Source of the DNA: Patescibacteria group bacterium
GTDB lineage: Bacteria > Patescibacteriota > Patescibacteriia > SG8-24 > DYFX01
Assembly (NCBI GenBank): GCA_038062835.1
Contig: JBBTWH010000006.1
Span: 60 to 64,059, forward strand
Direction of reading: 5' to 3'
Length of the DNA: 64,000 nt
Numbering within the stretch: the stretch's first letter is position 1; each line of letters begins with the position of its first letter. This document shows positions 6,986 to 55,475 of the stretch, in pieces. The notes under the pieces were generated by a model. That model was not told where the DNA came from and made no database searches. It saw only the letters and a program-made list of their open reading frames with translations. The position numbers and the translations under genes were made by a program.

Positions 6986-8161
6986 ATGGACCCGATCGAG
7001 AAGTTCCTGAAGGAGCGGGGTGTCATCGCCCCGCCTCCGGACCGGCCGCTCGTGACGTACCCGAAGTACTGGGAGCGTACCGTGCGCTGGCTGGCCGCCG
7101 CGACGCAAGCGCCCGACATCGTGAAGGCGCACGGGGCTTCAGCCCTGGACGTCCTCAACGGCGCGATCGGCGCGCCGGCGTTCTTCACCGACCGGCGCTA
7201 CCTGCCGCAGCTCGGCCGCCAGGCCGGCTACGGCTTCATCCTCCTCCCTGGAGGGTGCGAGTGGGCGCTGAAGAAGGACCGGGGCGGGCAGTGCACGTTC
7301 TGCGAGTTCCAGGAGGTCGTCGACTTCATGGCCGGCGACCTGCCCTTCAGCCACGAGGAGTTCCTCGCGATCTTCCAAGCCGGTTACGCCGGCATGGCCG
7401 ATTCCGACATCCTCAACGTCTTCACCGCTGGTTCGTTCCTGAATCCCGGCGAGATCCCGATGAGGAGCCAAGCCGCCATGGCCGCGCTCGTCGCCGCGTC
7501 GGCGAAGACGTCCGTCCTGCGCGTGGAATCCCGCGTGCAGTACATCGTCGACGAGACCGTCGCTCCTCTCGTCTCGATCCTGGCGGCCAAGGGCAAGACC
7601 CTCGACATCGCCATCGGCTTCGAGACGAAGGACGACGAGATGCGCAACAAGGCGCTCCGCAAGGGCATGGGCCGCAAGCAGTTCGAACTGGCGGTCCAGG
7701 CTGCTAAGCGCCACGGCGCGCGCGTCTCGGCCTACGTCATCCTGATGCCCATCGCCCTCGACGAAGGCTACGCCATCCAGGAGTGCATCGACTCGATCCG
7801 TTACGCCTTCGAGGCGGGCTGCGACGAAGTGTTGCTCCAGGCGCGCTACAGCCACTACGAGGACCAGAAGTGCCCGTGGCTCTGGTCGATCGTGAAGGTC
7901 CTGAACGAGACCGCCGCGCTCGGCCCGGTCATGCTGGGCCGCTGGGAGACGGAGCTTCCGGAGCCCAAGGTCTGGCCGAAGAACTGCGACGCCTGTTCGC
8001 CGGAGGTCATGAAGTCGATTGCCGCCTGGCGCGACGGCCTCCAACCTTCGACCATCGCCGAGGCGGCCATGCCAGCGTGCGGCTGCCGCAAGGTCTGGGA
8101 GCAGGAGGCGGCCAAGACCGCCCCGCCGCCCAAGCGCATCACCCTGCCGACCGCGCCTTAG
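6986..8161 (+). CDS. Radical-SAM-like enzyme (TIGR01210/01212-like) with atypical Cys motif
   Basis: 'GGCEWALKKDRGGQCTFCEF' cluster motif; C-terminal extra Cys cluster; RBS AAGGAGG. Confidence 0.5.
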   Translation: MDPIEKFLKERGVIAPPPDRPLVTYPKYWERTVRWLAAATQAPDIVKAHGASALDVLNGAIGAPAFFTDRRYLPQLGRQAGYGFILLPGGCEWALKKDRGGQCTFCEFQEVVDFMAGDLPFSHEEFLAIFQAGYAGMADSDILNVFTAGSFLNPGEIPMRSQAAMAALVAASAKTSVLRVESRVQYIVDETVAPLVSILAAKGKTLDIAIGFETKDDEMRNKALRKGMGRKQFELAVQAAKRHGARVSAYVILMPIALDEGYAIQECIDSIRYAFEAGCDEVLLQARYSHYEDQKCPWLWSIVKVLNETAALGPVMLGRWETELPEPKVWPKNCDACSPEVMKSIAAWRDGLQPSTIAEAAMPACGCRKVWEQEAAKTAPPPKRITLPTAP

Positions 8162-8206: not shown

Positions 8207-9973
8207 CTACATCTCCTCCGGTGCCGAGAAACCCAGGAGCGCCATGCCGCGGACGAGCGCGGCGTCGGCGGCTTCGAGCAGCCGCAGCCGCGCGGCGCGG
8301 TCCTCCTTCGAAGCGGCGAGCACCTGCGCCTTCTCGTAGAGCGCGGCGACCGCCTTGGCGATGTCGTAAATCTGCGCGGCGACGAGCGAGGGTCGCGAGG
8401 ATTGGGCGGCGCGGTGGACGGCTTCGGGGAAGCGCGCGACGGACCAGGCCAAGCGGAACTCGGATTCTTTTTCGGATTCTGGGTCCCCCGCCTTCGCGGG
8501 GGGTGACATGTGGGACGCGGGGGGGGACACGGAGGAGGGCGCGGTTTCGGCGGCCTTCCGCATGATGCTGCGGATGCGGGCGTGCATGTATTGGAGGTAC
8601 GGGCCCGTCTTGCCGGTGAAGGACAGCGAGGCTTTCGGGTCGTAGACCATGTCGGAAGCGATGTCGACCTCGAGGAAGTGGAACTTCACGGCGGCGAGCG
8701 CGACCTGGCGCGAACGGCGGACGAGCTCATCGTCGGTGAGCGTCGGATGGCGCTGGCGGATCTCCAGCGCGGCGTCGGCCTCGAGCGCGGTCAGCAGGTC
8801 GTCAGCGTCGACGACGGTGCCTTCGCGCGACTTCATGCGCCCTTCCGGCAGGGTGACGTAGCCGTAGGAAAGGTGCTCGAGTTTCGTCGCCCACGGGTAG
8901 CCGGCGAGTTCCAGGATCTTGAAGAGCTGGCGCATCTGGAGGTTCTGCTCGTTGCCGACGACGTACAGCGAGCGGTCGAGGCCGTAGTCCTCGAACTTCT
9001 TCTTGGCGAGATAGAGGTCCTGGGTGATGTAGAGCGCGGTGCCGTTGGAGCGCAGGAGGACCTTGTCGGGCATGCCGTACGGTTCGAGCTTCGCCTCGAC
9101 GTGGCCGTCCTCTCCCTTCATGAACGCGCCCTTGGCGACGCCTTCCTCGACGATGGCTTTGCCTTCCGTATAGATCTCGCTCTCCTTGTAGACGGCGTCG
9201 AAATGAAAACCGAAGCGCGCGTACGTCTCATGCTGGCCGCCGACGCACCATTCCCCCATCGTCTTCCAGAGCGCGCGGGTCTCGGCGTCGCCTTCTTCCC
9301 ATTTCTGGACGACAGACTGCGCTTCCTCTTCGAGGCCCGCTTCGCCGGCCTTCAGCTTCGATTCGAACATCACGTACCACTCGGCGACGAAGTGGTCGCC
9401 TTTCATGCCGGACGATTCGGGCGTCTTTCCTTCGCCCCATTTGGCGTACGCGACCATCGCCTTGGCGATGGCCAGGCCGCGGTCGTTCAGGATCATCGAG
9501 CGGACGACTTCGTGGCCTTGCGATTCAAGCAGCGCCGAGACCGATTCGCCGATCAGTCCGTTGCGGACGTGGCCGAGGTGGAGCGGCTTGTTGTTGTTGG
9601 GGCTGATGAACTCGACCATGACCTTCTCGTCGTGGCCGACCTTGCGGTCGCCGAAGCGCGCGCCGGTCTCGAGCGCTTCTTCGGTCGCTTTCGCGATGAC
9701 GGCGTCGCGGTCCAGGAAGAAGTTCAGGTAGGGGCCTTTCGCTTCCGCGCGCGCGAAGCCTTCCGGCAGGGAAATCGCGGCGGAGATTTCGGCGGCGATG
9801 GCCGCCGGCGCCTTCTTCAGATGCTTCGCCAGCGTGAAACACGGGAACGCCAGGTCCCCGTTCTCCGGCAGTTCAGGATATTCGAGCAGATGCTCGTGCA
9901 GGTCCGCGCCCGCCGCGGCGGAAAGCGCCGAGGCGAGATCGGAGCGGAGTTTTTCGATGAGGTACATGGACAT
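8207..9973 (-). CDS. argS: Arginine--tRNA ligase
   Basis: HIGH-type 'PNNNKPLHLGHVRN' and 'GRMKSREGTVV' motifs; 588 aa class-I ArgRS architecture. Confidence 0.9.
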   Translation of the reverse strand: MSMYLIEKLRSDLASALSAAAGADLHEHLLEYPELPENGDLAFPCFTLAKHLKKAPAAIAAEISAAISLPEGFARAEAKGPYLNFFLDRDAVIAKATEEALETGARFGDRKVGHDEKVMVEFISPNNNKPLHLGHVRNGLIGESVSALLESQGHEVVRSMILNDRGLAIAKAMVAYAKWGEGKTPESSGMKGDHFVAEWYVMFESKLKAGEAGLEEEAQSVVQKWEEGDAETRALWKTMGEWCVGGQHETYARFGFHFDAVYKESEIYTEGKAIVEEGVAKGAFMKGEDGHVEAKLEPYGMPDKVLLRSNGTALYITQDLYLAKKKFEDYGLDRSLYVVGNEQNLQMRQLFKILELAGYPWATKLEHLSYGYVTLPEGRMKSREGTVVDADDLLTALEADAALEIRQRHPTLTDDELVRRSRQVALAAVKFHFLEVDIASDMVYDPKASLSFTGKTGPYLQYMHARIRSIMRKAAETAPSSVSPPASHMSPPAKAGDPESEKESEFRLAWSVARFPEAVHRAAQSSRPSLVAAQIYDIAKAVAALYEKAQVLAASKEDRAARLRLLEAADAALVRGMALLGFSAPEEM

Positions 9974-9997
9974 GTCATCCCGGCGAAAGCCGGGATC
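9974..9997. repeat. Palindromic repeat element (GTCATCCC-GGCGAAAGCC-GGGAT) in argS 5' leader
   Basis: Member of the dispersed GTCAYCCCG hairpin family. Confidence 0.7.
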
Positions 9998-10037
9998 CAG
10001 TTCAATACGCGACGTTATAAAGGTTCCTGGATGTACT

Positions 10038-10063
10038 GGGCCCCGGCTTTCGCCGGGGTGACA
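10038..10063. repeat. Palindromic repeat element (inverted copy) abutting tyrS stop
   Basis: CCCCGGCTTTCGCCGGGGTGACATC is the reverse complement of the 9974-9997 element type. Confidence 0.7.
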
Positions 10064-11269
10064 TCACTTTTTCTTCATCAGTCGAACGAAGTACAGCTTA
10101 CCCTTCTGGAGGATGCTGCCCTTTTCAGGCGGGCGAATCTCCATGGAAGGATCATCGATCTTCTTGCCATCAATCTTGACGCCGCCGCTCTCGATGTCAC
10201 GACGAGCCTGCGAGTTCGAGAGGCCGAACGCTTTTGCGACGACTTCGGTCGAAGTCCGGACGCCATCCACGACAAAAATCTTGAGCGTATCAGGGCTCGG
10301 CATCTCGCCTTTCTGGAAGCGGGCCTTGAAAGAAGCTTCGGCGTCGTCCGTGGCTTTCGCGCCGTGATACATGGCGACGAGGCGTTTGGCGAGGCGCATC
10401 TTCACGTCGCGCGGGTTCTCCCCTTTCTTGAGCGCGGCCTTCTCCTGCCCGATCTCTTCCTTCGTATAATCGGCGGCGAGTTCCAGCCAGTTGTCGAGCG
10501 CGAAATCGGGGACCGACATCGTCTTGCCGAACATCTCGTCGGCGGAATCCATCACGCCGATGGTGTTGCCGAGCGACTTCGACATCTTCTCCTTGCCATC
10601 GGTACCGACGAGGATCTCGGTCGTCATCACGTCCTGAGGGATCATCCCCTTCTTGCTCATGAGAGCGCGGCCGGCGAGCATGTTGAAGGTCTGGTCGGTG
10701 GCGCCGATCTCGACGTCGGTCTTGAGCGCGATGGAATCGTAGGCCTGAAGCATCGGGTAGAGCAGCTCATGCATGTGGACGTCGGTGCCGGACGCGAGGC
10801 GTTTCTTGAAATCATCGCGCTCGATGATGCGGGCGACCGTGAACGACGCGCAGAGCGAGACGAAATCCACGGCCTTCATCTTACCGAGCCATTCGGAGTT
10901 GTAGCGGACTTCGACTTTCTTCACGTCGAGCACCTTGCCGACCTGCTTGAGGTACGTCTTGGCGTTCTCCTTGATCTCCTTGTCGGAGAGCATCGGGCGC
11001 GCCTTGGACTTGCCGGTCGGGTCGCCGATCTTGGCGGTGAAGTCACCGATCAGGAAGACGACCTCGTGACCCAAGTCCTGGAAGGCCCGGAGCTTGCGGA
11101 GCAGGACGGCGTGGCCGATGTGGAGGTCCGGGCGCGAAGGGTCGGCGCCGAGCTTGATGCGCAGCTTCCGGCCGGAGCGGAGCTTCTTCTCAAGGCTCTC
11201 GCGTACGATGACGTCGGCGACCTGGTGGGTCAGGAGATGGGAAATTTTCTGATCGATGTCGGGTTTCAT
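10064..11269 (-). CDS. tyrS: Tyrosine--tRNA ligase with C-terminal S4 domain
   Basis: 'PDLHIGHAV' HIGH and 'KMSKSLGN' motifs. Confidence 0.9.
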   Translation of the reverse strand: MKPDIDQKISHLLTHQVADVIVRESLEKKLRSGRKLRIKLGADPSRPDLHIGHAVLLRKLRAFQDLGHEVVFLIGDFTAKIGDPTGKSKARPMLSDKEIKENAKTYLKQVGKVLDVKKVEVRYNSEWLGKMKAVDFVSLCASFTVARIIERDDFKKRLASGTDVHMHELLYPMLQAYDSIALKTDVEIGATDQTFNMLAGRALMSKKGMIPQDVMTTEILVGTDGKEKMSKSLGNTIGVMDSADEMFGKTMSVPDFALDNWLELAADYTKEEIGQEKAALKKGENPRDVKMRLAKRLVAMYHGAKATDDAEASFKARFQKGEMPSPDTLKIFVVDGVRTSTEVVAKAFGLSNSQARRDIESGGVKIDGKKIDDPSMEIRPPEKGSILQKGKLYFVRLMKKK

Positions 11270-11296
11270 ACTTCAAGAATGTAGCGGTTGCGACCT

Positions 11297-11334
11297 AAAA
11301 AAACAACCCTCCAGCGCCTGACGGCTTCGGAGGG
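11297..11334 (-). terminator. Rho-independent terminator (minus strand) after gene 11353-11739
   Basis: CCCTCC...GGAGGG stem followed by TTGTTTTTTT when read on minus strand. Confidence 0.5.
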
Positions 11335-11352: not shown

Positions 11353-11739
11353 TCAGTTGGAGAGGCCGTCGTCCTTGGAGGCGCGGCGCCGGAGGAGCAG
11401 GTATGCCTGGCTGAGCGGATGCTCGGCTTCGCCCGAGAGCGGGTTCCATCTGAGGATCACGCGTTCGTCGCCCCAGATGAGGGCGTAGGTCCAGTCGGTG
11501 CCGCTGGCGTCAGTGCGGCCGACGAAGGCGAAGTTCGATCCGGCGACGCGGCCGCGGAACGCCTCGGCGCGGAAGCCGGAGGCGGGAATCGACGGCTCAT
11601 AGGCCTCGACGACGAACGGGCCTTCGCGGAGCGCGGCGAGGAAGCGCTCGGAGAGCCGACGGTTGACTCGGCGATCGGCGACGTAGGCGCTGGCGATGGC
11701 GGTCGCGGCGGCTCCAAGGAGCCAGTAGAACACTCGCAT
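11353..11739 (-). CDS. Hypothetical membrane-anchored protein (paralog-array member)
   Basis: N-terminal TM helix then Arg-rich 'RRVNRRLSERFL' segment as in neighbours. Confidence 0.4.
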   Translation of the reverse strand: MRVFYWLLGAAATAIASAYVADRRVNRRLSERFLAALREGPFVVEAYEPSIPASGFRAEAFRGRVAGSNFAFVGRTDASGTDWTYALIWGDERVILRWNPLSGEAEHPLSQAYLLLRRRASKDDGLSN

Positions 11740-11813
11740 GATCGGCCTCCTTTCAAATGATCCGCTTTCACGTTCTCATGACACGCGCTTGCCCGTCAAA
11801 GAAAAAGAGGCCT

Positions 11814-12258
11814 CTAAGAGGCCTCGCTATCGGGTTCGACCATCGGATATTTCTTCCGCAGCGCGCGGTAGATCCCGACAAACGGATGTCCGCCATCCTT
11901 GGACGTCTTGATCTCAGCATAGAACATCTCGCGTCCGGAACCGTCAAAGGCGTCACCGTGACCGAGGAAGAGGTGGTACCCTTCGGTGTCCCGGAAAGGA
12001 CGAAAGAGCCGGGTCAGGCAGAACGGCAGCGCGCCGGCCGTGCCGGTGAAGCTGTCGAGGAAGCCGCGGCCAATCGACGATTCTAAACGGAAGAACTCAG
12101 CGCGCAACTGGCCGTCGGCGGCGGCGTGCAGGAACGCACGCATCAGCAATCGGCGGTTCCGCCAGCGGCGGACGGTCTTGGGCGTCGGCAGGAGCTTGAA
12201 GGGGCCGACCAGGCCGAAGCACATCGCGATGAGGTAGATGAAACGGCCGACCTTACGC
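11814..12258 (-). CDS. Hypothetical membrane-anchored protein (paralog-array member)
   Basis: Start at internal ATG (MRKVGRFIYL...); TM helix then 'RRLLMRAFLHAA' resembling 'RRLMLRYFM' of 14258-14719. Confidence 0.4.
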
Positions 12259-12801
12259 ATGATGCCTCCCTTGCGACCGCAGGCGCGCCTCGCGCCTATG
12301 GCCGCGTTCGTCGAAGTACGAGACGTGGAGGCCGCCGACGCGGAGATCCTCGAGTCCGGCGAAGTACGCATCCCAGCGCACCTGCGTGACGGGCGTTTCC
12401 ATGGACGCGGAGGCAGCGATGGCGCCATCGACGTAGACGCACAGGACCGTGTGGAGCGTCTTGCCAACGCGCCGCTGGGTCTCGACGTACAGGAGGCGCC
12501 CGAAGGCGTCGCCGGTCGAACGCACCAGCGCCGTCTCGTAGGACATGACCAGGGCCTCGGAGATCGTGGTCACGTGGGGCTGGGTGGAGTACGCCATCGC
12601 CTCGCGGGCGATGCGGTTGAACTCCGCTTCATCGAGCCTCGGAGAGAAGCTCGGTGGCGGCTTTTCCGCCTCATCGCCCTTCGGGAAGAGGTCCTCATGG
12701 AGGAGCGCCCCGAGCGTCAGCGCCAGAGGTATCAGGTACAGGAATAGTAGGACGTACAAACCCGCAAGGACCGCGACGATGACGAGAATGAGCTTCAGCA
12801 T
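12253..12801 (-). CDS. Hypothetical membrane protein (2 TM + cytoplasmic domain)
   Basis: Start at MLKLIL...; hydrophobic N-terminus. Confidence 0.4.
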   Translation of the reverse strand: MLKLILVIVAVLAGLYVLLFLYLIPLALTLGALLHEDLFPKGDEAEKPPPSFSPRLDEAEFNRIAREAMAYSTQPHVTTISEALVMSYETALVRSTGDAFGRLLYVETQRRVGKTLHTVLCVYVDGAIAASASMETPVTQVRWDAYFAGLEDLRVGGLHVSYFDERGHRREARLRSQGRHHA

Positions 12802-12835
12802 CCAGACCTCCTTTGCTGAACGCCTCAAGCTAACA

Positions 12836-12870
12836 AAAAACCGGCCTCAGGTCAAGCCTGGGCCGGCGCG
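12836..12870 (-). terminator. Terminator with GTCAAGG-type loop
   Basis: AAAAAACCGGCC-TCAGGTCAAGCCTG-GGCCGG. Confidence 0.5.
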
Positions 12871-13373
12871 GTCGTGTCGGACACGGGAGATTCAAGGGGG
12901 TCGACGTGGCGCGCGGCCGCCGATTCCGCATCCGAGGCGGGCACCGACAGTTCCGGCGCGGACGGGAGTTCCCCGCGCGCCGCCTTGAGCAGAGACTGGA
13001 TCGACGCGACCGGGATGGCGTTCCCGACGAAGGTCGCTTCGACGCGGAGCGTGCGGACGCCCGTCTTCGGCTGATGCAGCTCATAGAGCACCCACCATCG
13101 GAGCCGCATCCGGCTCGTGTCGAGGATGAGCGACAGCCTGCGCTCGCCGTATCGTACGTTGAACATCGTATCGTGCGCGCGATCCTCGTCGGACCGCAGC
13201 GGCGAGCTGAACGCGATCTCCCGTGCGGCGACGGGATCGGCGAGCAGGCGGACGAGGTCAGCCATCTCGCCGAGAATCTTTCTTCGGTCACGGAGGCGCA
13301 GGCGCCGCGCCCTCACGAGCGCGAAGGCGGCGAACGACAGGGCGATGCAGATGAGAACGATCAGAAACCACAT
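12852..13373 (-). CDS. Hypothetical single-pass membrane protein, paralog B
   Basis: AGGAGG RBS; 'MWFLIVL...' TM; clear paralog of 14258-14719 ('SDEDRAHDTMF' vs 'SDDDRAHAAIF'). Confidence 0.5.
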   Translation of the reverse strand: MWFLIVLICIALSFAAFALVRARRLRLRDRRKILGEMADLVRLLADPVAAREIAFSSPLRSDEDRAHDTMFNVRYGERRLSLILDTSRMRLRWWVLYELHQPKTGVRTLRVEATFVGNAIPVASIQSLLKAARGELPSAPELSVPASDAESAAARHVDPLESPVSDTTAPAQA

Positions 13374-13897
13374 GGGCCATCCTCCTTGTCGAGCTTATCC
13401 CAATCGACCATCTCCACCACGAGCTCCCGATCGCGTCGGGCGCGGAGGAGAACCTCGGGCGGGTAGGCGTCGAGCAGGCGGAAGAGCTTCTCCATCCGCT
13501 CGACGAACCACGGGCTCCGGCAGGCGCGGCCGTAGCCGGGCAGGCGGTCGTCGACCAGCGCAGGGTGCTTGAAATCGATGGCGTAGATCCACGCGCCTGA
13601 CTTCATGAAGTACGGGCGGCGCATCGAGACATGCAGATGCGTGTAATCCTCGAAGTAGATGAAGCACGAGCGCCGCCTGACCACGCCATCATCATCCCGC
13701 AAACCGAGACGACCCAGACTCTCGAACGGCGGATCGCGCTTCTCGGCCTGCGCGATGATGCGGTCGAGAAGCGGCAGAAGCACGTCCTTGACGGCCCGTC
13801 CCTCGCTCCAACCTTTGTAGCGAAGGTACGCGAGCATGGACCCGGGAACGACGGAGAAGCCGAAGGCGGCGGCGGCGACGGACGTGAGGATCGGCAT
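13361..13897 (-). CDS. Hypothetical protein with hydrophobic N-terminus
   Basis: 178-aa ORF immediately upstream of paralog B with small overlap. Confidence 0.45.
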   Translation of the reverse strand: MPILTSVAAAAFGFSVVPGSMLAYLRYKGWSEGRAVKDVLLPLLDRIIAQAEKRDPPFESLGRLGLRDDDGVVRRRSCFIYFEDYTHLHVSMRRPYFMKSGAWIYAIDFKHPALVDDRLPGYGRACRSPWFVERMEKLFRLLDAYPPEVLLRARRDRELVVEMVDWDKLDKEDGPCGF

Positions 13898-13925
13898 GAT
13901 GAACCCCTTTCGGAAGGTGCTGAGG

Positions 13926-13956
13926 CGAGGCTAACGAAAAAGCCGCCCCGGGTCAA
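13926..13956 (-). terminator. Terminator with GTCAAGG-type loop
   Basis: AAAAAGCCGCCCC-GGGTCAAGG-GGCGGC. Confidence 0.5.
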
Positions 13957-14169
13957 GGGGCGGCGGTCAGGGCGGTCCGCAGCGGAAATCGTGCCGCTTC
14001 GGTGCCGGCGGTGGCGACGTCGAAGGCCAGCGCGACGGCTTCGGCGGCGGCGGCGCCACGCATGGGCCGGTACCCGAGGTCGGCGTACGGCTCCCGAAGA
14101 GGAGGAGGAGCACGAGAAGGGCGACGAAGGCGCTGACGATGACGATGAACAGTGAGGCGACGGACATGG
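13957..14169 (-). CDS. Small hydrophobic (single-TM) protein; coordinates uncertain by 10 nt because the 13981 line shows only 50 nt
   Basis: AAGGAG RBS before internal ATG (MSVASLFIVIV...); track ORF is 13967-14242. Confidence 0.3.
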
Positions 14170-14206
14170 GAACTCCTTCCGATGGGATGGAGACGAAGAT
14201 ATACGA

Positions 14207-14240
14207 AAAACCGGCTTCCGTCAAGGAAGCCGGTCTTACC
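14207..14240 (-). terminator. Terminator AAAAACCGGCTTCC-GTCAAGG-AAGCCGG (copy 1 of identical 33-mer)
   Basis: Identical to 14753-14786. Confidence 0.6.
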
Positions 14241-14257
14241 ACTTCTGACGAGAGCGT

Positions 14258-14719
14258 CTAGTTGGGGTCGACGGGCGCGGAGACTGTCGGTTCCGGCGCG
14301 GGCAGGAGTTCCCCGTGAGCCGCCTTGAGCAGAGCTTGGATGGACTCGACTGGGATGTCGTCCCCGACGAATGTCTCTCGGACGCGACTGAGGATAAGGA
14401 CGACATTATTCTCCCGATGCTGCAGCTCGTACATGACCGACCAACGGACGTGCCGGCGGCGCGTGTCTAGGATGAACGACAGCTGGCGCTGGCCATGCCG
14501 CGCGGTGAATATCGCGGCGTGCGCGCGGTCGTCATCGGACAGGAGCGGCGGCGTGAGAATGACTTCGCCCGCGCTGGCGGGATCGGCGAGCATGCGGACG
14601 AAGTCCTTCATGAAGTAGCGTAGCATCAGGCGTCGGGAGCGGCTAAGACTACGGTTCAGCTTAATTACGCTGGCGAAGTAGAACGACGCGATGACGACGA
14701 GAGCGAGGATGAACCACAT
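14258..14719 (-). CDS. Hypothetical single-pass membrane protein, paralog A
   Basis: GGAGG RBS before ATG (MWFILALV...); paralog of 12852-13373. Confidence 0.5.
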   Translation of the reverse strand: MWFILALVVIASFYFASVIKLNRSLSRSRRLMLRYFMKDFVRMLADPASAGEVILTPPLLSDDDRAHAAIFTARHGQRQLSFILDTRRRHVRWSVMYELQHRENNVVLILSRVRETFVGDDIPVESIQALLKAAHGELLPAPEPTVSAPVDPN

Positions 14720-14752
14720 GCGGACCTCCTTCAAGGTGCTGAAGGCTAAGCT

Positions 14753-14786
14753 AAACCAAAAACCGGCTTCCGTCAAGGAAGCCGGT
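14753..14786 (-). terminator. Terminator AAAAACCGGCTTCC-GTCAAGG-AAGCCGG (copy 2)
   Basis: 33 nt identical to 14207-14240. Confidence 0.6.
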
Positions 14787-14799
14787 CTTATCGGCGCGT

Positions 14800-15945
14800 T
14801 CAGTCGTGGAAGGTGATCGTGCAGGTCTTCTCTTCGCCGTTGCGGACGGCGACGGTCCCTTGCGCGGCGCAGTCGCCGCCCCAGACGGAGGCGGTGTACC
14901 CCGGCGGCACGACTCGATAGAGCGTGTAATCATCGGCCCTTATGGAGGACGGAAAACCGCTGACGACCTGCATGCTCCCGATGAACAGCTGGACGTCGCG
15001 ATCGGTGAGGCGTCCGCCGCGCGTGTTCCGGACCGACGCGGAAATCGTCAGCATCGGCGGGCGGTTGGACAGCGCGCCGTATATCGAGTCCGGGACGTCG
15101 TCGAAAACGATGAAGCAGGCGCGGGTCTCGTCGGCGGGGACGGTGACGACGCCGTCCGGCGAGCAATCGCCTGACCAGGCCGAGATCTTATAGCCGGGAA
15201 GCTTGCCGTGGTACAGCGTGTAGCTGCCGGGCATGACGTTGACGCCTTCCTGCGGCATCACGAGCGACTCGCCGACGAAGTAGTCGACGTCGCCCTCCTT
15301 GGCGGATCCGCCGTTGTCGTTGATGACGGTCGGCAGGATGATGATGCGCGTCTGGGATTTCGGCGCGGCCGTGAACGCGAGCGACGCGACGGAAGCCGGC
15401 TTCGGGGCCGCGAACATGGCCGCGGCGATACGGCGGACGCGGACGTCCTGCAGGTCGGCGGAGGCGTCGCGCTCGGCCTTCCACCAATACTGGTCAGGGC
15501 CGGTCACGGCGGAACCGCGACCGTATTCGGCCAGGGCGGCGTCAGGCAGGACGGCGACCTTGCGGTTCCAGTCGTCGCCGTATATCACGCGCGCCACGGA
15601 TTCGCCCGCGAGCCAGCGCAAGGCGCCGTCGCGGTCGATGGCGTAGACGCGAGACTCGCTCGCGCCCTTGACCGGACGGATTCCGGGACGCAGCGGCGCG
15701 ACGCCGGCGAAAGGAAGTTTCGCCAGCTCGGCGTCGGAAACGGTGCGGACGGCGGAAAAATCCGGATACCAGGTCCGGTAGGTCTGCTCATCGAGGAATG
15801 CCACGCGCTGGCGATCGCCGGTGACGTAATAGACCGTGGGACCGGAACCTTTCACCGCTTCGCCGACATTGACGGCGGCGCTGGCCGACGGAACGGCCGA
15901 CAGCGAAACAACGGCCAGCATCGCGATAATAAGGCTCTTTTTCAT
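14800..15945 (-). CDS. Secreted hypothetical protein with two C-terminal ~45-aa Cys-containing repeats
   Basis: Signal peptide 'MKKSLIIAMLAVVSLSAVPSASA'; repeats 'PGSYTLYHGKLPGYKISAWSGDCSPDG...' and 'DDYTLYRVVPPGYTASVWGGDCAAQG...'. Confidence 0.5.
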   Translation of the reverse strand: MKKSLIIAMLAVVSLSAVPSASAAVNVGEAVKGSGPTVYYVTGDRQRVAFLDEQTYRTWYPDFSAVRTVSDAELAKLPFAGVAPLRPGIRPVKGASESRVYAIDRDGALRWLAGESVARVIYGDDWNRKVAVLPDAALAEYGRGSAVTGPDQYWWKAERDASADLQDVRVRRIAAAMFAAPKPASVASLAFTAAPKSQTRIIILPTVINDNGGSAKEGDVDYFVGESLVMPQEGVNVMPGSYTLYHGKLPGYKISAWSGDCSPDGVVTVPADETRACFIVFDDVPDSIYGALSNRPPMLTISASVRNTRGGRLTDRDVQLFIGSMQVVSGFPSSIRADDYTLYRVVPPGYTASVWGGDCAAQGTVAVRNGEEKTCTITFHD

Positions 15946-16068
15946 GGTATTTCTGGGTTATTGCGAGAAATATCGACGAGCAAGCATAGCACGATAAAGC
16001 GGTTTTGTCAATGATTACTGGCACGCGCGACGAAAAAACCGCCCGGGGGATCCAGACGGTTCTTGTCG

Positions 16069-18759
16069 TCACGTCACGGCAAGGGCCGCAACGATCTTCT
16101 TCAGCTCCTCGCGCTTCTCGGCGAGCATCGCGCGGGTCTTATCGACGATGCCCTTGGGCGCGTTGTCGGTGTAGCCGCGGTTGCCGAGCTTGGCTTCGAG
16201 GGACTTCACGAACCCTTCGAGGTTCGCCTTCTCCTTCTCGAGGCGCGCTTTCTCTTTGGCCGGGTCGACCATGCCGGCGAGCGGCAGGCAGGCTTCGATG
16301 CCGCCGACCATGGCGGAAGCCGCGTCCTTGGGCTTCTCCCCCTTCGCAACGATGGTCAGGGTCTCGATGCGCGCGAGCGTGCGGATGACGTCGGAGTTCT
16401 CCTTCAGCAGCTTCGCCTTGGTGCCGGCGATGAGCGTCGCGTCGACGCGTTTGGCGGGCTCCACCTTGTACTCGCTGCGGACGTTGCGGATAGCGCCGAT
16501 CACCTCGCGAATCAGGTCAAAATCTCTTGAGCGCTGGGCCCCGGCCTCCGCCGGGGTGACAACGCGAGGCCAGGACTCGATCATCAGGAACTTCTTGCCC
16601 TTGGCGTTGCCGGCGAGGAGGTCCCAGATGGCTTCCGTCACGAACGGCATGTAGGGATGCCAGAGCTTCAGCACGTTTTCCAGAACGTGGAGCAGGACTT
16701 TTTCGGTGGAAGCCTTGAGCTTCGTATCCTGCATCTGGATCTTGGCGATCTCGAGGTACCAATCGGCGAGCTCGGTCCAGGAGAAGTCGCGGAGCAGTTC
16801 GCCCGCGGGCGAGAACTCGTATTTCTCGATGTGAGCGGAGGCCTGCGCCGTGACGGCTTCGAGGCGCGCGAGGATCCAGCGGTCGGCGAGCGTCTTCGGC
16901 GTCGGCTTCTTGGATTCGCGGCGGACTTTCGAAACGCTCGTGAGGATGAAGCGCGAGACGTTCCAGAGCTTGTTGGTGAAGTTGCGGTAGCCGGCGATCT
17001 TCTCGTCCCAGACCTTGGCGTCGGCGCCGGGTGCCGTGCCGAGCACGAGCGAAAGGCGTACGGCGTCGGTGCCGTACTTCGGGATGACGTCGAGCGGGTC
17101 GAGCACGTTGCCGAGCGACTTCGACATCTTCCTCCCCTGCTCGTCGCGGACGAGGCCGTGGAGGTAGACCGTCTTGAACGGCACCTGTTTCATGACGTAC
17201 GTCGTCATCAGGATCATGCGCGCCACCCAGAAGAACAGGATGTCGTAGCCCGTCTCGAGCACGTCGGTCGGATGGAAACGCTTCAGGTCCGGCGTCTTCT
17301 TCGGCCAGCCGAGCGTGGTGAACGTCCAGGTGCCGGACGAGAACCAGGTGTCGAAGGTGTCGCTGTCCTGCGTCAGTCGCTTGGAACCGCAGCCTTTCGC
17401 GCCACAGACCTTCGGCACCGTGCGGGCGACGGTCACGTGGCGGTCGGGGCAATACCAGGCCGGGATGCGGTGGCCGAACCAGATCTGGCGCGAGACGCAC
17501 CAGTCGCGCAGGTTCTCCATCCAGTGGTAGTAGACCTTCTCGAAGCGCTCCGGGATGATCTTCACCCCGCCCTTCCTCACGGCGTCGAGCGAGAGTTCCT
17601 TGAGCGACTTGCCACGGCCCGGGATTTTCTTGTTCACGTCGACGAACCACTGGAGCGACGTGAGCGGCTCGATGGCGGTCGCGCATCGATAGCAGGCGGA
17701 GAGGTTGTTGGTGAGTTCCTCGACCTTCTCGATGAGGCCTTGGGCTTCCAGGTCCTTCACGAAGGCGTGGCGCGCTTCGAGCACGGTCATGCCCTTGTAC
17801 TTGCCGGCGGTCTCGAGCATGCGGCCGTCCTCGCCGATGACCTTGATGACGGAGAGCTTGTTCTTCTCGGCCATGCGGAAGTCGACGGCGGAGTGCGCAG
17901 GCGTGACGCCGACCAGGCCCGAACCGAAATTCGCGTCGACTTCGTGGTCGCCGATGACGCGGATGGTGAGAGGCTTCGTGCCCTTGCCCCAGTCCAGCTC
18001 GAAGGACTTTCCGATCCACTTCTTGTAGCGCTCATCGGAAGGGTTGGCGGCCACGGCGGTGTCGCCGAGTTTCGTCTCGGGTCGCGTGGTGGCGACGCTG
18101 AAAGGGCCGTACTTCAGGAAGTACAGCTTGGCTTTCTGTTCCTTATATTCCACCTCGTCGTCAGCAAGCGTCGAGGTGCAGCGCACGCACCAGTTCACGA
18201 CGCGCTCGCCGCGATAGACGAGGCCGTCCTCGTACATGCGGTTGAATATCTCGATGACCGCCTCGGAACGCGGCGCGTCGAGCGTGTAGGCCTCGCGCGA
18301 CCAGTCGATGGACGAGCCCATCTTGCGGATCTGGTTGCGGATGCGGTCACGGGACTTTTCCACGAATTCATCAACCCGGCGCAAGAACTCCGTGCGGCCG
18401 AGGTCGTGCCTGGATTTTTTCTCTTGCTCCTGGATGTTCTTCTCGACGCGCGTTTGCGTGGCGATGGAGGCGTGGTCCGTGCCGGGCAACCAGAGCGCCG
18501 CGAAGCCGCGCATGCGCTTGTAGCGGATCATAAGGTCCTGAAGCGCCAGCATGGTCGCATGTCCGACGTGCAACGCTCCGGTCGCGTTGGGCGGAGGCAG
18601 GACGATGGTGAACGGTTTCTTCTTTTTGCCGCCCGGCAGCTTGTCCGGGTCGAAATAGCCGCTTTTCTCCCAACGCGCGTAAATCCCATCCTCCACCTGG
18701 GAGGCGTCGTAGGCTTTGGCGAGTTCGGGCTTTTTCGGACCGCGCAGCATATGAGGCAT
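16069..18759 (-). CDS. valS: Valine--tRNA ligase
   Basis: 'PPPNATGALHVGHA' HIGH region, 'KMSKSLGN', C-terminal coiled coil; start placed at MPHMLRG; carries an in-frame palindromic-element-derived segment at ~16530-16560. Confidence 0.9.
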   Translation of the reverse strand: MPHMLRGPKKPELAKAYDASQVEDGIYARWEKSGYFDPDKLPGGKKKKPFTIVLPPPNATGALHVGHATMLALQDLMIRYKRMRGFAALWLPGTDHASIATQTRVEKNIQEQEKKSRHDLGRTEFLRRVDEFVEKSRDRIRNQIRKMGSSIDWSREAYTLDAPRSEAVIEIFNRMYEDGLVYRGERVVNWCVRCTSTLADDEVEYKEQKAKLYFLKYGPFSVATTRPETKLGDTAVAANPSDERYKKWIGKSFELDWGKGTKPLTIRVIGDHEVDANFGSGLVGVTPAHSAVDFRMAEKNKLSVIKVIGEDGRMLETAGKYKGMTVLEARHAFVKDLEAQGLIEKVEELTNNLSACYRCATAIEPLTSLQWFVDVNKKIPGRGKSLKELSLDAVRKGGVKIIPERFEKVYYHWMENLRDWCVSRQIWFGHRIPAWYCPDRHVTVARTVPKVCGAKGCGSKRLTQDSDTFDTWFSSGTWTFTTLGWPKKTPDLKRFHPTDVLETGYDILFFWVARMILMTTYVMKQVPFKTVYLHGLVRDEQGRKMSKSLGNVLDPLDVIPKYGTDAVRLSLVLGTAPGADAKVWDEKIAGYRNFTNKLWNVSRFILTSVSKVRRESKKPTPKTLADRWILARLEAVTAQASAHIEKYEFSPAGELLRDFSWTELADWYLEIAKIQMQDTKLKASTEKVLLHVLENVLKLWHPYMPFVTEAIWDLLAGNAKGKKFLMIESWPRVVTPAEAGAQRSRDFDLIREVIGAIRNVRSEYKVEPAKRVDATLIAGTKAKLLKENSDVIRTLARIETLTIVAKGEKPKDAASAMVGGIEACLPLAGMVDPAKEKARLEKEKANLEGFVKSLEAKLGNRGYTDNAPKGIVDKTRAMLAEKREELKKIVAALAVT

Positions 18760-18896
18760 CCTAGCGCGACGGAGCGCACGCTTCAAGCGTGGGAGCGTGT
18801 CGTCGTGGAACCGGTTATCGACGCGTGAATTCCGGAAAAAGCAGAAGGGACCCTGGAGAGGGTCCCTGGAAGGGGGTCGTGCGGGGTGGTTCAGAG

Positions 18897-19340: not shown

Positions 19341-19545
19341 CGGAAATCTCCTCTTGTTCGGACGTTGGACGATCGATTTTCCCTCTCGAACCCCTGAACA
19401 TGGTCATGGTCTCGAGATGAAGCCAGCACCATAGCAGATTCTCAGATGCCTGTCAATACGGACATGGAGCGCACGGTCCTTGACAAAGAGCCGTTTTTCG
19501 TATATGGTCGAGCGTTCGTGCCTGTCGCAGGCAAGGGAGGAATAC

Positions 19546-20287: not shown

Positions 20288-21046
20288 TTACTGGAGCATC
20301 GAGTCGACGATCTGCTTCACGGACTCGTACGGGAGGGCGCCCGGGATGAGCTCCTGCTCGCCGTTCGGACCGAGCACGATCGAGCCGGGGGTGCCGGTCA
20401 CGCCCGCCGCTTCGCCGCCGGCCAGGTCGGAGGCGACGCGCGCGGCGTACTTGCCGGAGGCGACGCAGTCGTTGAACTTCTTGATGTCCTTCACGCCGGC
20501 TTCCTGCGCGAGACCGGCAAGCTGGGCCACGGCGAGGCCGGAAGCCTGCTTCTCGAACATCTTGTCGGTCATCTCCCAGAACTTGCCCTGCTCAGAGGCG
20601 CACTCGGCGGCTTCGGCGGCCTTCTGCGCGTCAGGATGGATCGAGGTGAGCGGGAAGTGGCGGAAGACCCAGCGGACCTTGCCCTTATACTCGCTCATCA
20701 GCTGGACGAGCGTCGGGTGGAAACGCGAGCAGAACGGGCACTGGTAGTCGGAGTATTCGACGATGGTGATATCGGCGTTCTTGTCGCCGCGGATGTGGTC
20801 CTGGTCGGTGACCGGCGCGACGGGGCCGGCGGTCGGCTCGCCGCCGAGCGACGGGTCGGTCGGGGCGGAGGGCTGCGTCGGGGCGCCGACGCGCGCCGAA
20901 CCTGAGAACCAGCCGGAGGAGTCGACGCCCTTGGCGACCATCATGACGAAACCGAGCGCGGCAATGGCGAGGACGCCGGCAGCGACGCCCGCGAGGAATA
21001 TCTGCTTGGCGGTGAGCTGCATCGAGAACTTAGATTCGTTGTCCAT
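20288..21046 (-). CDS. DsbA-family thiol:disulfide oxidoreductase, membrane-anchored
   Basis: 'YSDYQCPFCSRF' CPFC active site; N-terminal TM. Confidence 0.7.
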   Translation of the reverse strand: MDNESKFSMQLTAKQIFLAGVAAGVLAIAALGFVMMVAKGVDSSGWFSGSARVGAPTQPSAPTDPSLGGEPTAGPVAPVTDQDHIRGDKNADITIVEYSDYQCPFCSRFHPTLVQLMSEYKGKVRWVFRHFPLTSIHPDAQKAAEAAECASEQGKFWEMTDKMFEKQASGLAVAQLAGLAQEAGVKDIKKFNDCVASGKYAARVASDLAGGEAAGVTGTPGSIVLGPNGEQELIPGALPYESVKQIVDSMLQ

Positions 21047-21088: not shown

Positions 21089-21454
21089 CTAGGCGTCGCG
21101 AAGCGCGGCGAAAGCGGGAAGCCTCGGCGGATCTTCCGTGACGAACGGCAGCGTGCCGGTCATGGCGCGTATGGAGCCGCGTAGCCGCGCGTGCGCGGCC
21201 GCGAGGACGGCGCGGACAAGGACGCTCGCTGCGAAGATCGCCGGCAGAGCGACCGGGAACCGGGAGACGCCTTCCGCCGGCAGCAGCTCGAGCTTCGACA
21301 GGTCGGCCTGAGCCTTGAACATCTTATGTTCCTGGCACGAGAGCGGCGCGGCGACCGAGCTGAAGAAGCCTGGATCGGCCGTCAGGCACGGCATGACCAG
21401 GAAGGACGCGACCAGCAGGAAGAGGAAGGCGCCGAGCACGGCCTTGGCCAGCAT
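21089..21454 (-). CDS. Hypothetical small membrane protein
   Basis: Hydrophobic N-terminus; weak. Confidence 0.3.
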   Translation of the reverse strand: MLAKAVLGAFLFLLVASFLVMPCLTADPGFFSSVAAPLSCQEHKMFKAQADLSKLELLPAEGVSRFPVALPAIFAASVLVRAVLAAAHARLRGSIRAMTGTLPFVTEDPPRLPAFAALRDA

Positions 21455-21532
21455 CCTGACATTCCCATCATGTGGATGAATCCCCATATGCCACGTCAGT
21501 ATACATGACGACGGCCAACGCGGCCTTTTTCA

Positions 21533-29958: not shown

Positions 29959-30297
29959 TTATTCCCTCTTGAACGTGGACCGCAGTCCCGATGGAGAGGT
30001 CGGTGTCGGCACGTAGGCAGGCGGCCGATAGCGCCGGCGCTCGATGGCGTCCGCGCAAACGGCGGTGACGATCGCCAGGAGGAGCAGCGTCAGGTTGACG
30101 ATCGTCTGCGGCGACGACGTGAGCGCCAACTTCAGCACAGCCGGCGAGACCGGGCAGACGTAGCCCATCGGACACGTCAGCATGGCCCCGGAGGAATGGA
30201 ACGGCACCGAATGGTTCCCATGCCAAAGCCCCATCGCGGCCGCATGGAGAGCGACGGCGAGGAGCGCGACGGCGAGAGCGACGGCGATCTTCCGCAT
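29959..30297 (-). CDS. Small Cys-motif membrane protein (metal-handling candidate)
   Basis: Signal/TM N-terminus; 'LTCPMGYVCPVSP' motif; second TM. Confidence 0.35.
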   Translation of the reverse strand: MRKIAVALAVALLAVALHAAAMGLWHGNHSVPFHSSGAMLTCPMGYVCPVSPAVLKLALTSSPQTIVNLTLLLLAIVTAVCADAIERRRYRPPAYVPTPTSPSGLRSTFKRE

Positions 30298-30330: not shown

Positions 30331-31416
30331 TCAAGGCCCGACCTCAATCAGCCACAGTCCGATCCTGTCCGGTTCTTCCGGAGAAAGCGGCGCGAGGAAG
30401 CTGACCAAGGCGCCGTCCGGCGAGATCGAGGGCGACGTCTCGGGCCCGTGCGCGCCGGAGGTCAGGTACGCGCCCGCTTTGGTGACGGCATCGAGCGCCT
30501 TGATGCGCGTCGTCTCCCCCATCCGCGCCTCGGCGATGATGAACGTGTCGGACGCCCCGCGGCGGACGGGCGAGGTCTCGTCTTCCTCGTGCGTGCGGAG
30601 CAGCGGCGCGGGATTCTTGCCGTCGACGTCCATCACGTAGGCGTCCCAGCTCCCGTTCGGCGAGCGGCGCTGGAAATAGATCTTGCGTCCGTCGTCGGAC
30701 CAGGTCGGCCGGCGGTCGTCGCCGCCGCGCGTGAGCTGCTGGATGCCGGCGCCGTTCAAGCCGATCTTCCAGATCGAGGCTCCCGTCGGCTTCTTCGCAC
30801 GGTCGTCATTGACTTCGAAGGCGGCCCAGACGCCGTCCGGCGAGATCGCGGGGGCGACGAGATCTTCGCGGCCGTCGTGCGTCGTGAGGCGTTTCTCGTT
30901 CTTGCCCTCGAGGCCGGAGCACCAGATTTCGAAGACGCCGCGTTCGTCGGGCGCGGAATAGCAGAGCGTGCCGGCGTTGCGGTGCGCGGCGCGGTGGCTG
31001 GAGGCCAGCCGCGGACGGACGGAATCGAAGATGACGGTCGCGGAGGCGGACGCCACGTCGACGCGCAGGATCTTCCAACGCGCGTCCTTGCCCGTGGCCG
31101 TGGCGCTGACGATGAGCGTGCCGTTGTCGGAGAAGCCGGCGGCGAGCGGACGTTCGCCTTCCGACGGCGCCCAAAGGAGGCGCGCGCCGTCAGGGCGGGC
31201 GCGTAGGCCCTCGAGCCGCGGATCAATCGGCGCGGGCGCTTCTTCGGCCGATGGCTGCGGAGGCGGCGGTTCGACGATGACGTTCTCGAGCGAGCGCGCG
31301 GCGGCCTGGCGATGGACCGTCAGCACGCCGTAACCGACCGCGCCGATGACGACGAGGGCGAAGACGGCGGCGATGAATCCCCTGAACGCGCGCATAACGT
31401 ATTGAAAGTATAGCAC
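30331..31416 (-). CDS. TolB-like beta-propeller (PD40 repeat) protein, membrane-anchored
   Basis: Repeated 'SPDG...' / 'WSDDGRKIYFQR' PD40-like blades; N-terminal TM. Confidence 0.55.
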   Translation of the reverse strand: MLYFQYVMRAFRGFIAAVFALVVIGAVGYGVLTVHRQAAARSLENVIVEPPPPQPSAEEAPAPIDPRLEGLRARPDGARLLWAPSEGERPLAAGFSDNGTLIVSATATGKDARWKILRVDVASASATVIFDSVRPRLASSHRAAHRNAGTLCYSAPDERGVFEIWCSGLEGKNEKRLTTHDGREDLVAPAISPDGVWAAFEVNDDRAKKPTGASIWKIGLNGAGIQQLTRGGDDRRPTWSDDGRKIYFQRRSPNGSWDAYVMDVDGKNPAPLLRTHEEDETSPVRRGASDTFIIAEARMGETTRIKALDAVTKAGAYLTSGAHGPETSPSISPDGALVSFLAPLSPEEPDRIGLWLIEVGP

Positions 31417-34967: not shown

Positions 34968-34996
34968 TAATTTAGCATATTTCGGCCATTTTGTCA
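34968..34996 (-). promoter_or_regulatory. Promoter (minus strand) TTGACA-16-TAAATT
   Basis: Reverse complement of 34968-34996 = TTGACAAAATGGCCGAAATATGCTAAATT. Confidence 0.5.
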
Positions 34997-35018
34997 AGTT
35001 TCTTGGGCTTTCCGCGCG

Positions 35019-35051
35019 ACTTGACAAAATACCGATTTTAGGGTACGGTCT
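35019..35051 (+). promoter_or_regulatory. Divergent promoter (plus strand) TTGACA ... TAGGGT/TACGGT
   Basis: ACTTGACAAAAT is the inverted copy of ATTTTGTCAAGT at 34985-34996; drives 35106-35594. Confidence 0.45.
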
Positions 35052-55399: not shown

Positions 55400-55405
55400 C
55401 GCCCC

Positions 55406-55434
55406 TTGACAAAAGGGGCTTTTTCTTTTATAGT
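55406..55434 (+). promoter_or_regulatory. Promoter TTGACA-17-TATAGT upstream of RNase P RNA
   Basis: TTGACA 55406-55411, TATAGT 55429-55434. Confidence 0.6.
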
Positions 55435-55475
55435 CATCCCTATCCTGGGTACTTCGTACCTGGGTGATGTTTTAA

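Follow-up and report, generated by a model that had tools for sequence, protein, structure and literature searches.

Why should the terminators in a row of small genes share one and the same loop? The question is raised by a cluster of eight co-directional genes on the minus strand, flanked by valS and tyrS, in a stretch of 64,000 nt from a Patescibacteria group bacterium (contig JBBTWH010000006.1, positions 60 to 64,059), the whole of which we call the window. The letters A–H are labels of this analysis, A being the gene of a secreted protein and B–H seven small genes. An earlier note on this DNA had described seven small co-directional genes following a secreted Cys-repeat protein, which is what we find with B–H downstream of A, and it had taken the conserved loops as a sign of module duplication in a locus reminiscent of the toxin/immunity or surface-variation kind. 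On balance we favour a different reading, namely a clade-specific cluster of D-E, F-G and H between valS and tyrS with promoter-coupled terminators, in which B has arisen by duplication of E and whose products may form a non-enzymatic membrane assembly. The loops would then be conserved because signals for ending and for starting transcription overlap in them, and not as a result of toxin/immunity module shuffling. The cluster and its flanks are composed as follows:

16069–18750, valS, flank of the cluster on the gene A side
14800–15945, minus strand, gene A, 381 aa: signal peptide, N-terminal domain and two SpaA_2 (prealbumin-like) repeats
14258–14719, minus strand, gene B, 153 aa: N-terminal transmembrane (TM) anchor and predicted cytoplasmic domain, without the C-terminal tail of E
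13967–14167, minus strand, gene C, an open reading frame (ORF) of 66 aa: one TM helix, Pro-rich tail and a strong Shine–Dalgarno (SD) sequence (GGAAGGAG)
13361–13897, minus strand, gene D, 178 aa: N-terminal TM anchor
12852–13373, minus strand, gene E, 173 aa: TM anchor, Arg-rich helix, beta-meander, C-terminal helix and disordered tail
12253–12801, minus strand, gene F, 182 aa: long N-terminal hydrophobic segment, then an acidic flank
11814–12260, minus strand, gene G, 148 aa: TM-anchored, distant paralogue of H
11353–11739, minus strand, gene H, 128 aa: TM anchor, helix, five-strand meander and C-terminal helix
10064–11269, tyrS, flank of the cluster on the gene H side

D and E overlap by 13 nt and F and G by 8 nt, making D-E and F-G overlapping bicistrons. 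The same gene calls for the cluster are found on a public contig of the Hainich groundwater Patescibacteria metagenome-assembled genome GCA_964357585.1. Single gains and losses aside, the families of D, E, F, G and H occur in the same order and with a single copy of E at ten distinct related loci, to which we gave the numbers L003/L005, L004, L006, L007, L008, L012/L013, L014, L016, L017/L018 and L019. The core of the cluster would therefore be the five small membrane proteins of D-E, F-G and H, with A placed in front of them in one sub-clade that includes this genome.

Putative promoter-coupled terminators between the units

Read on the coding strand GTCAAGG is CCTTGAC, and the core shared by the loops is TTGAC. 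Four elements of the same build lie in the cluster, in each of which a hairpin with TTGAC in its loop is followed by a T-tract, 3–4 nt and a TAnnnT box. The spacer between TTGAC(G/C) and this box (TAGCTT, TATCTT, TAGCCT and TAGCTT) has 17 nt in all four and is made up of the 3′ arm of the hairpin and the T-tract. The folding energies (dG) given with the elements were calculated by RNAfold:

Element 1, 14748–14790, minus strand: 33-mer hairpin ACCGGCTTCC-TTGAC-GGAAGCCGGT plus T-tract at 14758–14790 (−21.8 kcal/mol, z −5.4); putative promoter TTGACG-N17-TAGCTT at 14748–14776, upstream of B
Element 2, 14196–14238, minus strand: identical 33-mer hairpin at 14206–14238 (−22.5 kcal/mol); putative promoter TTGACG-N17-TATCTT at 14196–14224, upstream of C
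Element 3, 13928–13964, minus strand: GCCGCCCC-TTGACCC-GGGGCGGC plus T-tract; putative promoter TTGACC-N17-TAGCCT, upstream of D-E
Element 4, 12827–12867, minus strand: 5′ arm in the last codons of E, T-tract, then TAGCTT (−20.7 kcal/mol); upstream of F-G

Together the four elements range from −20 to −22.5 kcal/mol with z-scores of −2.9 to −5.4, and a terminator scan also detects them. The two identical 33-mers had been pointed out earlier and are confirmed, while two further statements of the earlier note hold in part. All four loops had been said to contain GTCAAGG, which is exact in three of them (13952, 14220 and 14772) and reads GTCAAGC in the fourth (12851–12857), and every gene had been given a terminator of its own, which does not apply to D and F with their bicistronic overlaps with E and G. 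In the window GTCAAGG is found 15 times, compared to 6.9 expected occurrences.

The promoter pattern itself is far more enriched, as TTGACN-N16–18-TANNNT occurs 18 times in the window (four times in the cluster) versus 0.70 times in dinucleotide shuffles, and according to our reading of the site listing these sites are mostly located upstream of genes. TTGAC-N17-TAnnnT appears to be the ordinary sigma-70-type promoter of this organism. When 14 elements from this and the related genomes were aligned, the only invariant columns were TTGAC, three positions of the T-tract and the T, the A and the final T of the −10 box, and folding places TTGAC in the loop for 13 of them (−14 to −30 kcal/mol). At least four internally complementary stems carry this one loop, namely ACCGGCTTCC/GGAAGCCGGT, CCGCCCAGG/CCTCGGGCGG, GCCGCCCC/GGGGCGGC and GCCGCCTGAC/GTCAGGCGG; they were assessed by folding each sequence separately, as variable loop lengths put the MAFFT alignment out of register for the stems. 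The same composite, with the −35 box in the loop and the 3′ arm plus T-tract as spacer, is present upstream of rnpB (55406) and at 19480, the valS–A junction of L004 and L007 has one with TTGACA in the loop, and an element nearly identical to element 3 is located upstream of the gene labelled x in L003.

The TTGAC of the loops would thus be conserved because it is the −35 box of the downstream promoter and not because of a recent duplication. From the idea that the conserved loops indicate module duplication the loops themselves drop out, with a −35 box in the loop, stems that differ by compensating changes and a similar element at rnpB, and what remains are the pair of identical 33-mers and the similarity of the cassettes. 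These two would also fit another explanation, in which the hairpins are merely duplicated terminators spread by tandem duplication or gene conversion, TTGAC has no promoter role and the genes are transcribed by read-through from one upstream promoter. The identical 33-mers lie within a 75-nt repeat of 79% identity that reaches from the terminator through to the start codons of B and C, the cassettes of the locus share a similar 5′ untranslated region (5′UTR; TCAGCACC...AAGGAGG), which suggests common descent, and four of the six loop-TTGAC hairpins of the window fall into this 4.6-kb region. However, the stems vary between elements and orthologues with only TTGAC, T-tract and TAnnnT being invariant, the −10 box is always found at sigma-70 spacing, and the composite recurs at the unrelated genes mentioned above. 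Moreover, hairpins of −20 to −22 kcal/mol followed by U-tracts would block read-through, and therefore the downstream genes would need promoters of their own. We consider an origin by terminator duplication alone quite unlikely.

Promoter-coupled intrinsic terminators, a widespread arrangement, have recently been described by Fletcher, Forrest, Cooper, Adams, Kapanidis and Grainger (bioRxiv 10.64898/2026.08.19.745784, August 2026), whose experiments mapped them in A. baumannii, E. coli and B. subtilis and who predicted them for six further species. In these elements the DNA of the stem-loop also holds the −35 box, and the −10 box follows shortly after the T-tract. Transcription ends about 10 bp before the next start site, the definition asking for a mapped 3′ end no more than about 35 bp (mode about 10 bp) ahead of a mapped start, and tandem genes of related function are preferred positions of the elements. 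The elements of the cluster are alike in their GC-rich hairpin and T-tract between tandem genes, the −10 box directly after the T-tract, the −35 box within the DNA of the stem-loop, the shortened intergenic regions and the separation of related neighbouring genes. They differ in that the −35 box is specifically located in the loop, that one variant has the stop codon of the upstream gene inside TTGAC and that the cassette has apparently been copied within the locus together with 5′UTR and SD sequence; they are also predicted from sequence only and belong to the high-GC genome of an uncultivated member of the Patescibacteria outside the sampling of that paper. That the cluster elements are promoter-coupled terminators of this known kind is a well-supported assignment at the level of sequence.

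In the proposed mechanism, the TTGAC in the loop of an upstream gene's intrinsic terminator would at the same time be the −35 box of the sigma-70-type promoter of the next gene. RNA polymerase would terminate at the hairpin and U-tract, and a new transcript would begin roughly 10–17 nt downstream, which would divide the cluster into short units with a promoter each (A, B, C, D-E, F-G and H) and intergenic gaps of only 50–90 nt. Promoter-coupled terminators, described in 2026 for cultivated bacteria, would thereby be extended to a reduced high-GC Patescibacteria genome, in which this design would save intergenic space and be copied along with genes.

The palindromes could also be operators for one transcription factor that co-regulates the whole cluster. 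Perfect inverted repeats of 10–13 bp do overlap the −35 boxes, and one section of the preprint by Fletcher et al. reports terminator palindromes as possible transcription factor binding sites. With three different stems in this one locus there is no shared operator, and no regulator gene is present in the cluster, which makes this explanation extremely improbable compared to the coupling of terminators and promoters.

The extreme C-termini of several cluster proteins (D, E and F) are conserved because they overlap with the signals of the next gene and are hence dual coding. The C-terminus of D overlaps the SD sequence and ATG of E (13361–13375), and the invariant C-terminal HHA-stop of F overlaps those of G (12253–12262). 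In E, the last codons P-A-Q-A-stop (12852–12867) double as the 5′ arm of the terminator hairpin, and the TGA at which translation stops is part of the TTGAC of the −35 box.

Duplication of E, paralogy and related loci

The spacer between A and D has 902 nt in the window versus 77–110 nt in the related loci, and none of the related loci compared has B or C (for C, no match was obtained by tblastn). This points to a gain of about 820 nt in this genome, comprising B, C and two extra copies of the regulatory cassette. In L003, L004 and L012 the A–D spacer carries the same stem as the 33-mer of the window, with one inserted base in L012. That E and B are clear paralogues, as had been proposed from their sequences, is confirmed by 50% identity over 149 aa (E-value 1e-42), and the idea of a duplication event stands as well, with the regulatory cassette having been copied together with the gene.

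In a neighbour-joining tree (not bootstrapped) B is the sister of this genome's E with a branch about twice as long. Three-taxon Nei–Gojobori estimates of nonsynonymous (dN) and synonymous (dS) change gave dN 0.25–0.34 and dN/dS 0.83–1.10 for the B branch, compared to 0.07–0.16 and 0.32–0.72 for the E branch. B does not have the conserved C-terminal tail of E (VDPFE...AQA); the core motifs and the open frame are retained. According to this, E would have been duplicated to give B, which then would have changed two to five times faster at nonsynonymous sites and lost its tail. The 66-aa ORF C would have been added too, so that B and C each stand behind an extra copy of the cassette of about 75 nt.

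The origin of C is less clear-cut. A 27-nt in-frame stretch of C (14123–14149) matches the TM-coding part of H (11680–11706) in 24 of 27 positions, encoding I(V/A)SA(F/Y)VA (z = 5 against codon shuffles). Shared ancestry of this fragment could account for the match, or else chance, given the Ala, Val and Ile codons. A descent of C from B or E by decay was rejected, since their DNA alignment scores no better than codon shuffles.

Alternatively, B and C might be decaying or non-functional by-products of the duplication, and the whole cluster might be of little function. A dN/dS of about 1 on the B branch, the loss of the conserved tail, the lack of any C homologue in the related loci or in the 64-kb window and the loss of D-E in L014 can be seen in this light. 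B has nevertheless kept an intact frame of 153 codons, the core motifs, a fraction of G or C at third codon positions (GC3) of 0.81, a strong SD sequence and its own putative promoter despite a branch dS of about 0.3, and no locus that spans the positions of F, G and H is without them, their dN/dS being below 1. We therefore regard such a decay as unlikely and hold to the duplication of E within a maintained cluster.

The small proteins are related to each other to a limited extent only. G and H show weak pairwise similarity (28% identity, E-value 0.5), but their orthologue profiles align over 121 columns (hhalign probability 93.5%, E-value 2e-7) and the HMMs of the two families find each other's members. 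Because of this profile alignment and the reciprocal matches we take G and H to be old, distant paralogues related over their whole length, so that the similarity noted earlier for 11814–12260 and 11353–11739 extends beyond the juxtamembrane motif. Profile comparison of E and H shows no relation, and no homology was found for D versus F (hhalign probability 1%) and E versus G (2.6%), leaving the proposed repeated X-Y module as a purely architectural feature of two bicistrons. A shared origin of D, E, F and G/H was rejected, as profile–profile comparison gave similarity in the TM segments only. No other members of the families are encoded elsewhere within the window.

In protein database searches the E family comprises 17 clusters among 5.8e9 proteins, the H family 27 clusters and the F family 22 clusters, and an exhaustive search with the E profile gave 11 representatives among 1.84e9. 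None of the database relatives of E, H and F carries a Pfam domain or an informative name. Among the GTDB species representatives no match was obtained with the E profile and one genome, 'Candidatus Paceibacter sp.' BE2011, with the H profile, the only such representative of the small clade that shares the D–H core, and viral contigs (IMG/VR) contain no relatives of E or H. The small proteins are clade-restricted orphans of a few groundwater "Ca. Paceibacter"-like Patescibacteria. H is the best-conserved small member with an invariant ...KDDGLSN terminus, and D is the fastest-diverging one, with 25% identity over 151 aa to its positional orthologue in L003 (pairwise E-value 2e-6). In L020, from a distant GC-rich lineage, an E-like gene (29% identical) and an H-like gene form an overlapping bicistron (105–1003).

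Several of the related loci show variants of the cluster. An E orthologue without TM anchor is encoded in L017 (7716–8165), and the locus without D-E is found at 1279–3933 of L014. L003 has an extra gene of 107 aa without TM segment between valS and A (7730–8053). In L004 (9048–9326), L006 (4922–5188) and L008 (5688–5960) an extra conserved gene of about 90 aa (MSQYLPGRINV...) lies between H and tyrS, again without TM segment, and the spacer preceding it contains a terminator and a TTGAC box.

Gene A encodes a protein with a Sec signal peptide (ASA|A) and two SpaA_2 repeats, each with a Cys pair, and matches Pfam PF19403 in two stretches (E-value 6.7e-12, 46.3 bits at a curated gathering cut-off of 25). 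Its N-terminal part of about 170 aa matched no family in the Pfam, NCBIfam, PADLOC and PHROGs scans, and a sequence search of the PDB gave no match for A. In the related loci that have A, the orthologues are 66–76% identical and align end to end, with a dN/dS of about 0.33; L017 and L019 are without A and keep D–H. The SpaA_2 repeats and the Sec signal peptide are shared with the SpaA-type prealbumin-like domains of Gram-positive surface proteins. In contrast to those, A shows no LPXTG sorting signal or C-terminal anchor in its sequence, has an N-terminal part without family and is missing from two loci with D–H, and the cluster is without a sortase gene.

With A as secreted protein, the reading as a polymorphic toxin/immunity or surface-variation locus would make A or another product the exported effector and the small TM proteins immunity or variant modules. 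What the cluster shares with such arrays are tandem small genes downstream of a secreted protein including two pairs of paralogues, fast evolution of the small genes (dN/dS 0.5–1.0 versus 0.13–0.27 for valS and tyrS, with valS at 0.13–0.15 and tyrS at about 0.25), some gain and loss (B and C here, D-E in L014, the extra genes labelled x and y elsewhere) and a weak sub-threshold Imm31 match of H in Pfam (E-value 0.22, 11.9 bits at a cut-off of 25). However, in the profile scans none of the eight proteins showed a domain known from toxins, their trafficking or immunity to them, and PADLOC gave no anti-phage defence match among them. A is conserved throughout and has no variable C-terminus, all small genes except B and C have positional orthologues in the relatives, and the families are not represented any further in the window. 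Since ten loci have a syntenic D-E-F-G-H core with a single copy of E, this is not the pattern of a toxin/immunity or surface-variation array, and we consider such a locus very improbable. Display on the surface finds no support either, as the predictions place most of the small proteins (B, D, E, G and H) on the cytoplasmic side, again a difference to the known arrays.

Predicted membrane proteins and a possible assembly

In B, D, E, G and H the N-terminal TM helix is followed by 4–8 Lys and Arg residues, in agreement with a positive-inside bias, whereas in F the long hydrophobic segment stands between a basic N-terminus and an acidic flank. This predicts, with low confidence, that the first five are bitopic N-out/C-in proteins holding small alpha/beta domains at the inner side of the membrane and, with equally low confidence, that F is N-in/C-out with its domain outside the cell. 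The E orthologue of L017, which has no TM anchor, fits with a cytoplasmic domain for E.

The AlphaFold2 model of E (mean pLDDT 85.4, from an alignment of 18 sequences) shows a long helix (2–45), a beta-meander with four long strands (68–116), a C-terminal helix (122–132) and a disordered tail, which is Pro-rich and contains the conserved VDPFE motif. The model of H (27 sequences, mean pLDDT 80.7, core >88) consists of a helix (23–39), five strands and a helix (108–125). These small, presumably cytoplasmic domains have no match among solved structures, and a PDB sequence search with the E profile gave nothing. A PH-like fold, the PH type being a seven-strand beta-sandwich with a C-terminal helix as its cap, had been considered in the earlier note but is not supported: B–H matched no bacterial PH (bPH) family in Pfam at E ≤ 1, and no PH-domain structure was among the best 50 Foldseek matches listed for the models of E and H (best E-values 0.085 and 0.13). 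The bPH membrane proteins such as YdbS/YdbT are similarly small and membrane-anchored, with a beta-sheet followed by a C-terminal helix, but the E and H models have a single TM helix, a long helix, a meander of 4–6 strands and a helix.

B–H had no match in the Pfam, NCBIfam, PADLOC or PHROGs profile libraries, the only two PHROGs matches among all eight proteins having E-values above 0.1, and the earlier statement that no catalytic motifs can be recognised holds true. Distant relatives of E have not kept the conserved polar motif DEDRAHDTMF but do retain WWVLYE, the C-terminal helix and the DPFE peptide of the tail, which makes a binding module a more natural reading of E than an enzyme. With low confidence we propose that the small proteins belong to a single assembly at the membrane, in which they would serve as adaptors or scaffolds without enzymatic activity and E and H would be the most persistent partners.

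Several points weigh against the overall reading that we favour. For none of the proteins did Pfam, NCBIfam, PADLOC, PHROGs, PDB or Foldseek give a homology or fold match indicating a specific function, and the topologies come from hydrophobicity and flanking-charge rules only. The set is not an obligate unit, as L014 is without D-E and L017 and L019 are without A, and a homologue of E from a low-GC relative still more distant than L020 (L009–L011) lies beside an unrelated multi-TM protein, in a context that has none of D, F, G and H. With valS being 85–91% identical the genomes compared are closely related, and shared gene order alone is weak evidence for proteins working together. Regarding transcription, we infer termination and initiation at the elements from the sequence alone, the element between E and F has a poor −10 box in several orthologous loci, and the −10 region of the conserved block upstream of H (see below) is non-canonical.

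One may go a step further and see in D–H an unrecognised membrane assembly of the Paceibacter lineage and in the terminator–promoter–5′UTR–SD cassette a copyable expression slot for new genes, B being one and C possibly a newly born one; this extension we regard as conceivable but doubtful. Orphan small membrane proteins are common in Patescibacteria genomes, and hence the cluster is no large surprise. It does define four orphan protein families (D, E/B, F and G/H) from a very small clade, two of them with confident structure models, which are concrete targets for studying Patescibacteria-specific membrane biology.

Cluster borders and other features of the window

The remaining signals of the cluster, all on the minus strand, are the following:

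16033–16049, minus strand, terminator of valS
15983–16011, minus strand, putative promoter of gene A, TTGACA-N17-TATGCT, separate from the valS terminator
11802–11825, minus strand, terminator of G (whole block 11788–11825), GAGGCCTC-TTA-GAGGCCTC plus T-tract
11297–11334, minus strand, terminator of H (whole block 11278–11334), −26.4 kcal/mol

The terminators of G and H, too, closely adjoin the next putative promoter. Directly after the hairpin of G, a conserved TTGACG (11794–11799) is located upstream of H. It belongs to a block TTGACG-N15-TGAGAACGTG in the G–H spacer (11740–11813) that is nearly invariant in all orthologous loci and could serve regulation or be a promoter of an unusual type. 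The T-tract of the H terminator overlaps a −35-like box TTGTTT, 17 nt upstream of TACATT (11278–11283), which itself lies 8 nt before the ATG of tyrS. This arrangement is conserved in L003 and L017 and suggests that the tyrS mRNA is leaderless.

Many genes of the window have TAnnnT directly or up to about 10 nt before the ATG and no SD sequence, with −10-like boxes before the ATG also upstream of 20288–21046, 21089–21487, 29959–30297 and 30331–31395 (all on the minus strand), which suggests that many mRNAs of the window are leaderless. A strong SD sequence was found for only about 12 of the 53 crude gene calls, and B, C, E, F, G and H all have one. The GC3 of the eight cluster genes is 0.81–0.87 (0.84 for C), next to 0.84–0.89 for the neighbouring aminoacyl-tRNA synthetase genes, which besides valS and tyrS include argS (8207–9973) beyond tyrS on the gene H side, and the base composition of the locus equals that of the rest of the window. 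Very long ORFs run antisense to argS/tyrS (8510–11284, plus strand, 924 aa) and valS (16657–18828, plus strand, 723 aa); we consider these and similar ones high-GC artefacts and not genes.

An Rfam scan of the cluster region matched no RNA family. Further away in the window, the stretch 55400–55978 holds the RNase P RNA gene rnpB (RF00010, 151 bits), of which 506 nt stand against a model of 367 positions and which hence contains insertions. The putative promoter-coupled terminator directly upstream of it reads GCCCC-TTGACAAAA-GGGGC-TTTTT...TATAGT. Finally, two divergent pairs of putative TTGACA-N17-TAnnnT promoters are found at 19428–19508 and 34969–35049, with exactly 23 nt between the −35 boxes in each of them.

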